Source: a virus. Taken from it: 64,000 nt of DNA. The stretch covers positions 13,060 through 77,059 of IMG/VR virus record IMGVR_UViG_3300017992_000021. The stretch is one strand, 5' to 3'. The notes under the pieces were generated by a model, which did not search any database, was not told the origin of the DNA, and was given only the letters and a program-made list of their open reading frames with translations. The position numbers and the translations under genes are program-made. This document shows positions 10,230-56,397 of the stretch, one piece after another; within the stretch, counting starts at the first letter, position 1, and each line of letters opens with the position of its first letter.

Positions 10230-11548
10230 AACAGCGGCGGATACAGCGCGATAACCTCGCCCCACCCCATAATCGGCACCATCGGAATAATACCGGCAGC
10301 CATTACGGCGGCGTTCGGAATGTAGAACACTTGGAGATCCGATCGGAAGCACCCGACATTGCTGCGCTTATCGGCAGCGAGTGACGGCACGCCCGTATTG
10401 ACCTCGCGGTAGTGCAAGTCCGGCACAAGATTCACTGTGTCTAGTACGGAGTCCCACTGAGGGATACCGGCTACACCGCCAACGCTGGCCATTGATTCGC
10501 ACGCAAACTCGTGGGCGTACAACGTGCCGGTCGGATGACCCGGATTGTTCGTGGGGTGCTGGAACGGACAGCCCTGCGGCATCGGCAGTGAACCAAGCTG
10601 CGACGGTAAGGCGTACGCCGCATAGATGGTCGAAGCAGCGATAAGATCGTACGCAAACTGGTCGTGAATGAATTCCCACGTCTGGACGTAGTACCGTTCG
10701 GTGAGATCCCGGATGGCTTCGGTGAACTGGTAGCTGTTACTCGATGCCACCCGTGCGGCGACGTCGCTACAGTAAATCGAATGCACCGTCATTATGAACG
10801 AGGACGTGTTCTTGTACAGGACGCCTATCTCGAAATATGTCGCATCAGCGTCAGGCGTTATCGACATCTGGGCTACTTGATCAGTGCCGGATGAGAGGTC
10901 GTTTGTGTCCACCATCTCGACACGCCCGTTAGCGCCGCCGTCCCACACGGCGTACAGGTTGCCGCTGTTATTGATGTCACAGTCGTACTTGATGGATATC
11001 GTCAACGCCTTACCGGCAAAACGATCGACCGGGCAGTGTGCGCTGATTGGCTGATACAGCGCGGGCCAGTCTTCATTGGCGACGTTCTTGGTACGTGCTG
11101 CTGCTGCGAACTGTAATCTCAGAGACTTGTTGCCGAGCAGGACGTCCTCGTCACCGAAATCAGAGGTCAGCATCTCGTTAGCGATGAACCACCCCGCCAT
11201 GATGGTTGGGTGGTACGTGTATGTCGTACCGGCGTACCCGAGGGAGGTTCCGCTCGGTAAATTGGCGAAATTCGTAGTTGCTGCCCGCACGTTGCCGGGT
11301 CCGGGTATCGTGTAAGCAGATGCCTTCAGATGCAGCCAGCGTGAAATCTGCATGTCGCCGTTGAGTTCAAGCTGGCCATTACCGAACAGCCCGCTGACGG
11401 TGTTGGTAATGTTCGTCGTGCGGTTGTGGAGATCGATGATCTCCTGCTTACACTTGGTGAAATTACCCTCGATCTCCGTAACGTATGCTGCGGGATCGAT
11501 CGGTAAGTCAAGGTCATTTCCCGACCCAGAAAACGGAGGGTTCGGCAT
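10226..11548 (-). CDS. putative tail fibre / receptor-binding protein (jelly-roll CBM-like middle)
   Basis: Last gene of the tail module; KSLRLQ...LYQPI...GKALTISI pattern typical of CBM-like virion domains. Confidence 0.55.
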   Translation of the reverse strand: MPNPPFSGSGNDLDLPIDPAAYVTEIEGNFTKCKQEIIDLHNRTTNITNTVSGLFGNGQLELNGDMQISRWLHLKASAYTIPGPGNVRAATTNFANLPSGTSLGYAGTTYTYHPTIMAGWFIANEMLTSDFGDEDVLLGNKSLRLQFAAAARTKNVANEDWPALYQPISAHCPVDRFAGKALTISIKYDCDINNSGNLYAVWDGGANGRVEMVDTNDLSSGTDQVAQMSITPDADATYFEIGVLYKNTSSFIMTVHSIYCSDVAARVASSNSYQFTEAIRDLTERYYVQTWEFIHDQFAYDLIAASTIYAAYALPSQLGSLPMPQGCPFQHPTNNPGHPTGTLYAHEFACESMASVGGVAGIPQWDSVLDTVNLVPDLHYREVNTGVPSLAADKRSNVGCFRSDLQVFYIPNAAVMAAGIIPMVPIMGWGEVIALYPPLF

Positions 11549-12549: not shown

Positions 12550-14403
12550 CTACGCTATCCTGTAAAGTGACGCTGACATAATGGGTTCTGTCCCGCGTGT
12601 GATTTCGCGTGACAACGACTTAATCTTGTACTTGAAACCGGTGTCGTCGTCTTGAATAACATCGCCCGGCTCTAACAGAATGTCCCGCTTCATTTCCGAA
12701 TTCCTGACCGCCTGTTCCGCCAGACGTATCGCCAACTCTCGTTGTGCGAACGTGCGGAGTCCGGGATTCGTGACTTCCGGGTGGGTTGGCGCGATTGCCG
12801 GGACCACAGAATCATCTTCAGTAGAGAAAATATAATTCTTGATCTCGACATCTCGGCGCTCCCACTGTCTGAAGGGCTCAGTTCCCGGTATTTGGGAACC
12901 AAAGTGCTCAAGCATGGCGTCTACCCGGAGTTCCTTGTAGACGGTCTCAAACGGAACACCATGCACTTCAAACTCGTAGTTACCGATCATCTGCAGTACT
13001 GTCATGGCGCCAAGCAACAAGCCTTGTGCGGCAAAGTCCAAAGCCGTAGATGTAGACCATTCGGTATCGGAAGACGGCGGCGGCACTATAGGCGTGGGAG
13101 GCGTACCTATACCCCCGTGCACGTGGGCGCTAAGCAGGGTCTGCCACGCCTTGATCTGAATCATGGCGTCATTTTGCGTAGCATTTTTGGCGTCTAGTAA
13201 ACCAATGTACCCGGCGAAGAAAGCTGCGAGTGCGGCAACAACAAGAGCGGTATCGTTCTCAACCGTAATTCCGTATTTGTACTCCGTCTGCCTGTAGAAC
13301 TTTGGCGGATACACAGCCGTAATGAAGCCCTCTTCGCGGAAATTCTCAATCTTTGGAGAGATGACCGTGCGCCCTTCGGCGTCAGTAACGGAACCAATTT
13401 TGACTCGATAAGAATCCTGCTCATCACCACCCCACGCACCTTCGAACTCGGTACTGGGATCAAAGAACCCAAAAGTGCCTTTCACGGCGAATAGGCGTTG
13501 CTCTTTTTTAACGACGTCTGTCAGATCCTTATCCAGCCCGATGGCCCTAACACAGTTCACGGCGTCAAATGCTCCTGATGTCTGAGGCAGGTTTGCAATT
13601 TGAATACCGGAAAGTGATCTTGCAACGGGGTCATTGAGGCGTCGCGAGATGTAACGCAGTTTACCTTCACCGTTGAACTGCGGTACGAGGTGCAGCATCT
13701 CCCCTAATGTCTGTAGCGCCTTCAGAGGGTTTACCTGCACGAACTGAAGCTGCTTCTCGATACGGTAGGGCAGCGGGCCTATGAGTACCTCGTCGTTTTC
13801 GAGACCCATACCCCATTCAGCATCCGTAGCGAATTCCTTAGCGATCTGACCGATATCATCGTAATTGTTGCGGTACTGATAACGCTCATCCGGGTTCGGC
13901 AATTGATTGGGGAACCACACGCCGTCCGAGGTCAATTCCCACTCAGTGTACTGTGCGTCACGACTGATAAAGTTGATATCGACCTTACGCTCTACGCCGC
14001 GCTCTGAACGTCCAGTAGAGGGCGTAGTAACCGCGTTCTGAAGATCCTCCGTCGCGCTGGGCTGCCCCACGTGCCAACCTGTGAATGTCGTGGGCCACTC
14101 GGTCTGCGGAATGCGCGCATCGCCCTCTTTCAACTGCACGATGCAGTTGTAGAACATGCCCAGTGACACCTTCTCCAATGAGACCGTTAAATCGAGCGAA
14201 CTCGCATCGCTTTTCATATCCAGCGTGACGGAGCCGTTAGTTACATACGGCGTGATGTCTACGGGCGTCTGTTTGTAGCTGCCGCGCACGATGTCGCTGT
14301 CGGAATCCTGCCAACGCGAGAACAGCAATATCTGAAAATCAGGCACGTGGTCGTGCGCCTGCACTTTCAGATCGAGATCAGTACCTTGGTACGTACTCAG
14401 CAT
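12550..14403 (-). CDS. baseplate hub / tail-associated (Tal-like) protein
   Basis: LQTLGE...PQFNGEGKLRY, VNCVRAIG and C-terminal DILLEPGDVI...YKIKSLSRE patterns typical of hub proteins. Confidence 0.65.
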   Translation of the reverse strand: MLSTYQGTDLDLKVQAHDHVPDFQILLFSRWQDSDSDIVRGSYKQTPVDITPYVTNGSVTLDMKSDASSLDLTVSLEKVSLGMFYNCIVQLKEGDARIPQTEWPTTFTGWHVGQPSATEDLQNAVTTPSTGRSERGVERKVDINFISRDAQYTEWELTSDGVWFPNQLPNPDERYQYRNNYDDIGQIAKEFATDAEWGMGLENDEVLIGPLPYRIEKQLQFVQVNPLKALQTLGEMLHLVPQFNGEGKLRYISRRLNDPVARSLSGIQIANLPQTSGAFDAVNCVRAIGLDKDLTDVVKKEQRLFAVKGTFGFFDPSTEFEGAWGGDEQDSYRVKIGSVTDAEGRTVISPKIENFREEGFITAVYPPKFYRQTEYKYGITVENDTALVVAALAAFFAGYIGLLDAKNATQNDAMIQIKAWQTLLSAHVHGGIGTPPTPIVPPPSSDTEWSTSTALDFAAQGLLLGAMTVLQMIGNYEFEVHGVPFETVYKELRVDAMLEHFGSQIPGTEPFRQWERRDVEIKNYIFSTEDDSVVPAIAPTHPEVTNPGLRTFAQRELAIRLAEQAVRNSEMKRDILLEPGDVIQDDDTGFKYKIKSLSREITRGTEPIMSASLYRIA

Positions 14404-52865: not shown

Positions 52866-52940
52866 TGGATGCGGCGGAAGGACTCGAACCTTCGACGGGA
52901 GGATCAAAACCTCCTGTGTTACCGATTACACCACGCCGCA
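52866..52940 (-). tRNA. tRNA-Gln(TTG)
   Basis: TGCGGCG/CGCCGCA acceptor, GGAGG-TTTTGAT-CCTCC anticodon arm, GAAGG-TTCGAGT-CCTTC T-arm, encoded CCA. Confidence 0.96.
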
Positions 52941-53046
52941 GCCGTGGTATCAGAAATGTCAAAAAGCGACCCCAAAAGAGACCGCCAGTACGCTAGCAAA
53001 AAAGTATCTAGGGATTTTGGGAAACTTTTTCATTTTTGTCAAGGCT

Positions 53047-53220
53047 TTTCCGTGGTTGGACGCTAGCCGACTCCATCACAGGTTCGAGCTACCTTCAGGC
53101 GCACGCAGCCCTTTTTACGGTCCGTGAGCCTAAAACGGCGTGGCAATCGCCGACGTGCTTTGCTGTCCGCCCACGGACACGGAGCCGGTAGCTGGGTCTT
53201 GCCATGACCCCCAACCGAAA
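53047..53220 (-). ncRNA. uncharacterised highly structured RNA with kissing loop and pseudoknots
   Basis: Helices GGTTGG/CCAACC, GGGTC/GACCC, AGCTACC/GGTAGCT, GTCCGTGGGC/GCTCACGGAC, CGGCG/CGCCG; complementary loops TGGCAA and TTGCCA. Confidence 0.7.
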
Positions 53221-53227
53221 AATAAAC

Positions 53228-53323
53228 AGGGCGTGAGCAGGAATCGAACCTGCGGGTAGGCATATCCGGAATACAGCCCACAGCCATCTTTCAGGCCGCG
53301 TTTACCACTTCGCCATCACTCCC
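53228..53323 (-). ncRNA. class-II tRNA-like RNA with aberrant anticodon arm and very long variable arm
   Basis: D-arm GCGAAGTGGTAAACGC, T-arm GCAGG-TTCGATT-CCTGC, acceptor GGAGTGA/TCACGCC; no CCA. Confidence 0.8.
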
Positions 53324-53335
53324 TGCCAAAGAGCA

Positions 53336-53401
53336 AGCCTCATCGTCCCTTGTGGAGAAAGCGCGCCATCTTTATCAGGCAAACCATTTTACGACGAGGC
53401 T
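53336..53401 (-). ncRNA. hairpin RNA carrying a GCCTGA...GATGGC motif
   Basis: 11-bp closing stem AGCCTCGTCGT/ACGATGAGGCT; internal GCC-TGATAAAGAT-GGC. Confidence 0.6.
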
Positions 53402-53405
53402 AATT

Positions 53406-53475
53406 TGGTGGAGGCGGAGGGAGTTGCACCCTCGTCTTCGACACCACTATGTGTCGAGCGTTCCTACGCGCCCCC
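53406..53475 (-). ncRNA. minimal tmRNA-like RNA (tRNA-like domain only)
   Basis: GGGGGCG/CGCCTCC-A-CCA with G3:U70, stemless D-loop, GAC-GAGGG-TGCAACT-CCCTC; 7-bp hairpin in place of the mRNA-like domain. Confidence 0.8.
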
Positions 53476-53555
53476 GGTAGCACGGGCAGAGGTGATCTGT
53501 GTTCAACTGCGTTACCCGATGCCTGCGGGGTTCTAACCACATGACACCGCCGTGC
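53476..53555 (-). ncRNA. degenerate tRNA-like element
   Basis: GCACGG/CCGTGC-TACC closing stem, TGGTTAG D-loop-like segment, CCCG-CAGGCAT-CGGG arm; no TTCRA T-loop. Confidence 0.4.
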
Positions 53556-53560
53556 GATAC

Positions 53561-53637
53561 TGGTAGCGGGGGGTGGATTCGAACCATCGACCTTCAGGTT
53601 ATGAGCCTGACAAGCTGACCAACTGCTCTACCCCGCA
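53561..53637 (-). tRNA. initiator-type tRNA-fMet(CAT)
   Basis: U1xU72 mismatch, GCGGGG/CCCCGC, TCAGG-CTCATAA-CCTGA, TTCGAAT T-loop, A73-CCA. Confidence 0.93.
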
Positions 53638-55389: not shown

Positions 55390-55853
55390 TATTCAATGAC
55401 CCCGTAGTGGCGCATTACCCTATCAAAATCTGACGCCTTGATTCTCGCCCGGCGCACGCACACATCCCGCAACTGCTTGTACCCAGTAGGACCAAGCTCC
55501 TTAAGACGCTGAACCGCACCAATCCCGAACATAAAACATTCAAGACGGTCAACGGGTTTGATTTCGCTAATTTTGTAACGACGGCCTACGTATATCTGCT
55601 CAGCACCCACTATAACTTTCCGAGCATAAGCGAGTCCTCTCCGACGCGTAGGCGGCACTGAGGGTGTGCAACAACCGCTACCCCACCAGTCCAGATCGCA
55701 ACTGTTCAGAATTTCACACACGAGGTACTCACGCGGCTTACCGGGCACTCGGTTACTCTCGCACTCCGGCCCGATCCAGTACCGCAGATTAGGCGTTACA
55801 TAGAGCAGCCCGTGTTGAATACAGATGATTTCAGGCTTTTTGGTCTTCGCCAT
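55389..55853 (-). CDS. Cys-rich hypothetical protein
   Basis: ATG after RBS GGAGAGG. Confidence 0.55.
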   Translation of the reverse strand: MAKTKKPEIICIQHGLLYVTPNLRYWIGPECESNRVPGKPREYLVCEILNSCDLDWWGSGCCTPSVPPTRRRGLAYARKVIVGAEQIYVGRRYKISEIKPVDRLECFMFGIGAVQRLKELGPTGYKQLRDVCVRRARIKASDFDRVMRHYGVIE

Positions 55854-56397
55854 TTTCCTCTCCGATGAATTCACCGTAGTCGGTGATTAGTTTACCGTCT
55901 AAGTGATCGATCTCGTGCTGAAGACAACGTGCGGCTAAGCCGAAGAACGTTTCTTCCTTCAGCACGCCCTTGCGATTTGAATATTTCACACGTATCCGCA
56001 TCGGACGGCTGATCATGACTTTGTTCTTGGCACCAAACGTCAGGCAGCCTTCAGCAGCCGGTTCCTCGTAGTCGATCGTCTCGATGATCACAGGGTTAAT
56101 CAGCGCGAGGCGCTGCGTGATGCACATGACAACTACCCGCTTGCTACAACCGACCTGTGGTGCGGCAAGACCGATGCCCTTGTGCTTGGACATCAACCAG
56201 TACATGTCATTGATGAGCACCTTGAGTGCATCATCGATGTACTTGACACGCTCGGCCTTCTTCTTCAGCACCGGGTGATCCGGCGCTACCAAGCTCGTCC
56301 ACTTCTTTGCTCGTCTGACCTTACCTTTACCCAACGTTCTTCCTTTCTTTTCTAGCCTTCTTGACTTTACGCTGCTCAGCATAATTAACCCTGACAT
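55831..56397 (-). CDS. def: peptide deformylase
   Basis: All three PDF motifs: GIGLAAPQVG, EGCL, QHEIDHLDG. Confidence 0.96.
   Translation of the reverse strand: MSGLIMLSSVKSRRLEKKGRTLGKGKVRRAKKWTSLVAPDHPVLKKKAERVKYIDDALKVLINDMYWLMSKHKGIGLAAPQVGCSKRVVVMCITQRLALINPVIIETIDYEEPAAEGCLTFGAKNKVMISRPMRIRVKYSNRKGVLKEETFFGLAARCLQHEIDHLDGKLITDYGEFIGEENGEDQKA

Follow-up and report, generated by a model that had tools for sequence, protein, structure and literature searches.

Several small RNAs retain the outline of a tRNA, or lie embedded in tRNA clusters, and do not decode. They include the tRNA-like domain of tmRNA, the YrlA Y RNAs, and species 1 and 2 of phage T4. In mimics of this kind, the acceptor/T-arm elbow is kept and the decoding part is swapped for some other module. 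In the YrlA Y RNAs, which occur in bacteria and phages, the stem that binds Ro is built from the two ends of the RNA, and the gene for Ro is close by (PMC4201824).

A different kind of system pairs a short hairpin with a protein, as seen in boxB/N, the coat-protein operators, and k-turn/L7Ae. Such hairpins can recur. For instance, nutL and nutR of phage lambda are near-identical hairpins in different contexts. The locus described here, where a tRNA-shaped RNA and a neighboring RNA that is not a tRNA share one small hairpin, is compared with both kinds of system.

The window referred to throughout is a 64,000-nucleotide stretch (positions 13,060 to 77,059) of the 77-kb IMG/VR virus record IMGVR_UViG_3300017992_000021, and all coordinates are those of the window unless stated otherwise. 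Its minus strand carries an RNA cluster composed, in order, of a tRNA-Met, an intervening stretch, a mini-tmRNA, a 64-nt RNA, a tRNA-like RNA, a structured stretch of ~175 nt, and a tRNA-Gln. The first gene, tRNA-Met(CAU) (53561..53637, minus strand), has a 1:72 mismatch, and the last is a called tRNA-Gln(UUG) (52866..52940, minus strand). Directly upstream of the 64-nt RNA lies the mini-tmRNA, a 70-nt element (53406..53475, minus strand) that consists of the tRNA-like domain only. Its score against the Rfam tmRNA model (35.7 bits, E = 1.7e-12) is below the gathering score of 47, with the ends aligned and the body deleted. A peptide deformylase gene (55831-56397, minus strand; Pfam PF01327, E = 4.8e-39) is located 2.2 kb upstream of the cluster, and sigma-70-like promoter matches were found as well. 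The deformylase, the tmRNA-like element, and the promoter matches together indicate a bacterial host; its phylum could not be narrowed down by looking up the deformylase in the Atlas. The combination of deformylase, tRNA-Met with its 1:72 mismatch, and mini-tmRNA suggests a translation-related module.

The tRNA-like RNA (53229..53322, minus strand) is of class II, with a Leu-type D arm. It scores 35.9 bits against the Rfam tRNA model, above the gathering score of 29, with 35 nt left unaligned at the anticodon arm. Class II features are present in the form of an acceptor stem, a D arm with GG, a long variable arm, and the T arm GGUUCGAUUCC; the acceptor stem has one A:G mismatch, the D stem is 3 bp long, and CCA is not encoded. 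This RNA lacks a 5-bp anticodon stem and a 7-nt loop with U33 and an anticodon, and ARAGORN makes no call. The anticodon-arm position is instead filled by a 14-nt arm with the 8-nt loop UGAAAGAU. The neighboring 64-nt RNA (53337..53400, minus strand) is predicted to fold as a three-way junction closed by a 10-bp stem, GCCUCGUCGU/ACGAUGAGGC (MFE -23.8 kcal/mol, z = -2.15). It matches no Rfam family, save for a weak permuted-tmRNA overlap (19 bits, E = 0.17).

The initial annotation had drawn attention to a motif, GCCTGA and GATGGC separated by 2–4 nt, that is displayed on these two scaffolds within otherwise unrelated sequence, and this description was borne out. Copy 1 (GCCUGA-AA-GAUGGC, GCCTGAAAGATGGC; 53283-53296) is the arm at the anticodon position of the tRNA-like RNA, and copy 2 (GCCUGA-UAAA-GAUGGC, GCCTGATAAAGATGGC; 53365-53380) is the main arm of the three-way junction. 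Both are exact matches on the minus strand, 82 nt apart and ~2.2 kb upstream of terL. The window has two occurrences of the pattern versus an expected 0.01, none of 100 shuffles reached two, and a search of the whole 77-kb record revealed no third copy. A control pattern, read backwards, had one isolated match elsewhere (at 10407), so a lone copy could arise by chance, but two copies spaced like these on one strand could not. The repeat is genuine and not a chance occurrence.

The letters common to both copies are GCCUGA plus AAGAUGGC, 14 nt in all, with an extra 2-nt UA in copy 2. Local alignment of the two host RNAs returned the motif alone (z = 3.8), and the flanks of the copies resemble each other no better than shuffled sequence does (p = 0.15 for the upstream flank and 0.76 for the downstream one). 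Because the flanks lack similarity and the alignment returns nothing beyond the motif, the block of identity corresponds to the hairpin. It is chiefly on account of this match between the block and the bounds of the hairpin that the hairpin, and not a random patch, is taken to be the shared item. A wider paralogy of the tRNA-like and 64-nt RNAs was considered as well, and was rejected on the dissimilarity of the flanks. As a separate observation, the 5′ leader and acceptor of the tRNA-like RNA (53311-53330, minus strand; UUUGGCAGGGAGUGAUGGCG) are 70% identical to 53364-53383 on the same strand (UUUGCCUGAUAAAGAUGGCG), which is UUUG followed by copy 2; it is through this resemblance that GAUGGC comes to occur three times in ~100 nt.

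Each copy is predicted to form a short hairpin. For copy 1, this is CGGCC-UGAAAGAU-GGCUG (53281..53298, minus strand), with an MFE of -12.3 kcal/mol (z = -4.7) and pair probabilities of 0.9 for GCC/GGC and 0.85 for an outer G.U. For copy 2, it is UGCC-UGAUAAAGAU-GGCG (53364..53381, minus strand), which belongs to the MFE fold of the 64-nt RNA and has corresponding probabilities of 1.0 and 0.93 (outer U.G). The probability of the GCC/GGC helix is 0.9–1.0 in each context, whether the RNA is folded alone, with its partner, or as part of a 440-nt segment (53040-53480). Both loops are purine-rich, measuring 8 nt in copy 1 and 10 nt in copy 2. The wobble at the base of the helix differs between the copies and is supplied by the respective host RNA, as G.U in copy 1 and U.G in copy 2. 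In the predicted folds, each hairpin protrudes as an apical, exposed arm from an RNA with several helices. The sequence of either copy also permits tandem G.A/A.G pairs beside U.U and G-C, a set of oppositions that the folding tools and their thermodynamic model cannot score.

The best explanation appears to be that the two RNAs carry a shared recognition hairpin for a trans-acting partner, a reading to which we assign a probability of about 0.4. It is drawn from the non-chance nature of the repeat, the limitation of identity to the hairpin, the wobble pair that each RNA contributes, and the apical, exposed position of both arms. The module would comprise a short G+C helix (GCC/GGC plus the wobble of the host RNA) capped by the purine-rich loop UGA(UA)AAGAU, in which the U.U, G.A, and A.G oppositions could stack and lead to a tip of AA or UAAA. 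In the tRNA-shaped RNA, the module replaces the anticodon arm, and since it occupies that place, the RNA cannot decode. In the 64-nt RNA, it is the exposed arm of the predicted three-way junction. Both copies may thus act as a handle for a single trans-acting partner, probably a protein, of host or phage origin, such that the two co-transcribed RNAs are bound or handled together. The principle would be that of the hairpin-plus-protein pairs mentioned above, without the hairpin being a K-loop. Of the common protein-binding module proposed earlier, then, the notion of one hairpin on two unrelated scaffolds fits the data, while its identification as a K-loop for L7Ae is unsupported.

Under the shared-hairpin reading, a binding partner should exist, and the copies would be kept identical by selection instead of recent copying. 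Perfect identity over 14 nt is also expected from recent copying, which counts against this reading. Neighboring ORFs, examined with Pfam and PHROG, gave no RNA-binding match and no candidate binding protein, and no 8–10-mer complementary to either loop was found in sense transcripts that could suggest an antisense target. Genes for L7Ae (PF01248), RtcB, and Ro/TROVE were likewise lacking in the 77-kb phage record, which is 82% complete. The locus resembles the described mimics in having a non-decoding, tRNA-shaped RNA embedded in a tRNA cluster, with the elbow kept and the decoding part exchanged. It differs from YrlA in the lack of a TROVE or RtcB gene, and in that its module is a tiny apical hairpin held in common with a non-tRNA neighbor. 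If the hairpin is truly a shared site, it would show that phages equip a tRNA mimic and another small RNA with the same handle for a protein, and the 16-nt hairpin would provide an experimental entry into the role of non-decoding, tRNA-like RNAs in phage tRNA clusters.

At present, the observation is confined to a single lineage and is without evolutionary support. Three metagenomic DNA runs, from three studies, contain the stretch with zero differences, and no RNA run is listed for it. A blastn search of 50,697 phage records matched the tRNA-Met and nothing else, and homologues of the tRNA-like or 64-nt RNA were not detected in phage records, IMG/VR, a metagenome scan, or a genome scan. The 14-nt word by itself is found in at least 114 IMG/VR contigs, and these are regarded as chance matches since no context is common to them. 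When the motif was combined with a T arm, there were no viral matches. A relaxed version of the motif with a T arm recovered only an ordinary tRNA-Ile, where the word extends from the acceptor stem into the D arm, and 14 genome matches of motif plus T arm were set aside as almost all due to chance, being mostly coding or upstream of tRNAs.

The tRNA-like scaffold has a much wider distribution than the motif. An IMG/VR search with the Leu-type D arm GGCGAARUGGUARACGC, whose loop is one nt short, and a T arm identified 56 viral contigs (loci L121-L176). ARAGORN assigned a standard anticodon in eight of these, made no call in 40, and reported 2- or 4-nt “anticodons” in the remaining eight. The acceptor AGUCAGG/CCUGACU with A73 is common to many members, in which a middle part of 40–70 nt is hypervariable and contains no 7-nt anticodon loop. 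GC-rich members, like the RNA of the window, have a short stub hairpin at the position of the anticodon arm followed by a long variable arm, and the loops of their stubs vary (GGAGA, UAAUC, UGA). In AT-rich members, the arm is seemingly missing altogether. The phage Leu-type RNAs therefore resemble that of the window in their D arm with its shortened loop, T arm, long variable arm, and lack of a 7-nt anticodon loop, but differ in having other stub sequences, and none of them carries GCCUGA..GAUGGC. UGA..GAU was seen at the same position in 6 of 44 Leu-type tRNA-like RNAs versus 1.6 expected, in a post hoc count that includes the window and near-duplicates and is given no weight here. Words shared between the other tRNA-like RNAs and their neighbors are at chance level, save for two isolated cases, and no convincing shared hairpin was found among them.

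Since the loops of other stubs differ, the tRNA-like body alone does not dictate the sequence of copy 1. The same variability can equally mean that no particular arm sequence is needed, which favors the explanation that ranks next, close behind the shared recognition hairpin. According to it, duplication or conversion carried a short patch from one gene to its neighbor in a fast-evolving tRNA-gene cluster, with the sequence being incidental and any stable cap sufficient. This is a possible though somewhat less probable account. The unrelated stub loops suggest that the scaffold requires no given sequence, and the motif is in no other viral tRNA-like RNA. Further short internal repeats exist in the cluster, where GAUGGCG occurs three times in ~100 nt and similarities of T arm and acceptor are also seen. 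In addition, the tRNA-Met contains CCUGA-AGGUC-GAUGG, spanning the 3′ strand of the anticodon stem, the variable loop, and the 5′ strand of the T stem, and could be a source of such words. Against this account, the block of identity ends at the boundaries of the hairpin, and a random patch is not expected to be so neatly bounded; the flanks are otherwise unalignable; and both recipient RNAs lengthen the helix with pairs of their own. If the repeat is only a relic of copying, the finding is an ordinary one.

A nut-like or RNP-assembly site, in which a boxA-like word and two boxB-like hairpins recruit Nus factors, perhaps with a phage protein, is improbable. It would allow RNA polymerase to read through the ~800-nt untranslated, Rho-exposed cluster, and a cluster of this kind would plausibly need protection from Rho. 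The word UGCUCUUU, identical to the initial 8 nt of the rrn boxA of E. coli, is located at 53328..53335 (minus strand), between the 64-nt RNA and the tRNA-like RNA and exactly midway between the two copies. It is the sole occurrence on the minus strand of the window, and on both strands there are three versus 2.2 expected. Uniqueness and midpoint position speak for the nut-like site, yet chance alone would give about one occurrence of an 8-mer per strand. A lambda-type nut site has a boxA word (CGCUCUUA or UGCUCUUU) on the 5′ side of the hairpin, and here UGCUCUUU lies 31 nt to the 5′ side of copy 1. Copy 1 with a flanking G is identical to the boxB of lambda nutR at 12 of 15 positions, in a comparison made post hoc.

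The lambda nut sites and the locus have in common a purine-rich loop on a short G+C stem, and a boxA or boxA-like word on the 5′ side of boxB or copy 1. Two near-identical hairpins in different contexts also recall nutL and nutR. The boxB fold, with a 5-bp stem and a GNRA-like pentaloop, is not what was predicted here, namely a 3–5-bp stem with a loop of 8 or 10 nt, and the pentaloop register of boxB would give copy 1 two mismatches in five pairs, with RNAfold favoring the other register. The spacer between UGCUCUUU and copy 1 is 31 nt versus 9 nt in lambda, and here both copies lie in one transcript, inside RNA genes. Beside the cluster, no arginine-rich N-like protein is encoded; the small proteins in this neighborhood are acidic or have no N-terminal arginine-rich motif, and they match nothing in Pfam or PHROG. 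The RNA clusters of relatives and the other tRNA-like RNAs are also without a nearby boxA. The broader proposal that the twin hairpins and the boxA-like word form a protein-recruiting platform, either for nut-type antitermination or as an adaptor by which a loop-binding protein connects to the tRNA-handling machinery, is equally doubtful. A platform of the nut type would mean that an untranslated phage RNA cluster is shielded from Rho.

Recognition at the level of DNA is very unlikely. The two direct copies of a 14–16-bp word, 82 bp apart and ~2.2 kb upstream of terL, would then be bound by a regulator, by a recombinase at its arm sites, or by a packaging factor. This arrangement of direct repeats upstream of terL is the attraction of the idea. 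However, each copy coincides exactly with an RNA hairpin predicted within an RNA gene, the 2-bp indel alters the spacing of half-sites, and there is no other copy anywhere in the genome record.

The K-loop interpretation of the initial annotation, in which the hairpin is of the box C′/D′ type and is bound by a protein of the L7Ae family, fares still worse and is highly improbable. Its basis is that CUGA opposite GAUG can form C-G, U.U, G.A, and A.G pairs, which are those of the box D/box C core (PMC7994747). In a K-loop, the 3-nt bulge is replaced by a 7-nt loop (PMC7991803). The hairpins of the window resemble the archaeal K-loops of box C′/D′ and H/ACA RNAs in this CUGA/GAUG core with its possible G.A/A.G, U.U, and G-C pairs, and in being short and terminal. 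In contrast to the archaeal loops of ~7 nt, only AA (copy 1) or UAAA (copy 2) would be left past the G.A pairs if these form, so that copy 1 cannot supply L1–L3. The archaeal K-loops also occur in a guide or H/ACA context and have L7Ae, whereas the setting here is bacterial, lacks such a context, and has no L7Ae gene (PF01248) in the phage record. In addition, YbxF and YlxQ, bacterial homologues of L7Ae, are reported in work from 2012 not to bind K-loops. An archaeal-type K-loop in a phage would have been the attraction of the claim, which does not hold.

A third and looser instance, composed of CCUGA, a 4-bp hairpin, and GUGAUGG, is present in the ~175-nt RNA (53073..53099, minus strand) and adds some weight to the K-loop interpretation. 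It resembles a true box C/D k-turn more than the two copies do, yet in the MFE fold of the ~175-nt RNA its GAUGGAG is paired elsewhere, and the instance was rejected for this reason. The loose pattern is also barely enriched, with seven matches versus 3.0 expected and four of 100 shuffles reaching seven; one of the matches is the ordinary tRNA sequence of the tRNA-Met.

Least probable of all is a translation signal at the stop-start junctions of small ORFs, made up of UGA (or UGA UAA) and then AUG GC, for while the AUG of copy 1 begins a 74-codon frame (53063-53287) and that of copy 2 a 9-codon frame, the longer frame was rejected as coding, with a codon log-odds of -0.18 versus 0.24 +/- 0.14 for the real in-frame chunks of the phage (0.9% of which score lower, under a model trained on the phage's own long ORFs) and a path through the T arm of the tRNA-like RNA, no ORF of >=40 codons terminates at either UGA, and a Shine-Dalgarno sequence is absent.

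Related phages carry RNAs of other kinds. Searches with TerL recovered one contig from IMG/VR, with 64% identity, and two from metagenomes, with 77%, and no relative among genome contigs; in the relatives found, the motif is absent and the RNAs are different. The 64% relative has a single tRNA-shaped gene (L003:2668-2772; Rfam 45 bits) whose anticodon loop contains an insert of 38 nt; the gene lies behind a sigma-70-like promoter and is missed by ARAGORN. In a 77% relative, a tmRNA-like domain of ~120 nt, GGGGGAG...CUCCUCCACCA, with G3:U70 (L118:4573-4696), abuts a tRNA-Gln. The same contig holds a structured non-coding stretch of ~300 nt (L118:3700-4180), with a T-arm-like hairpin closed by a 9-bp stem.

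A further tRNA-like RNA came up in the search for motif plus T arm, in two MAGs (L185:2605-2903, and also L177), where it is directly downstream of an RtcB-like gene, an assignment that is our own reading of the translated upstream ORF. No copy of this RNA was found by blastn in 151 genomes of the same order. It contains the internal hairpin GCCUGAGUGAUGGC, scores 23.8 bits against the Rfam tRNA-Sec model, which is below threshold, and precedes a tRNA whose anticodon loop has an insert of 52 nt.
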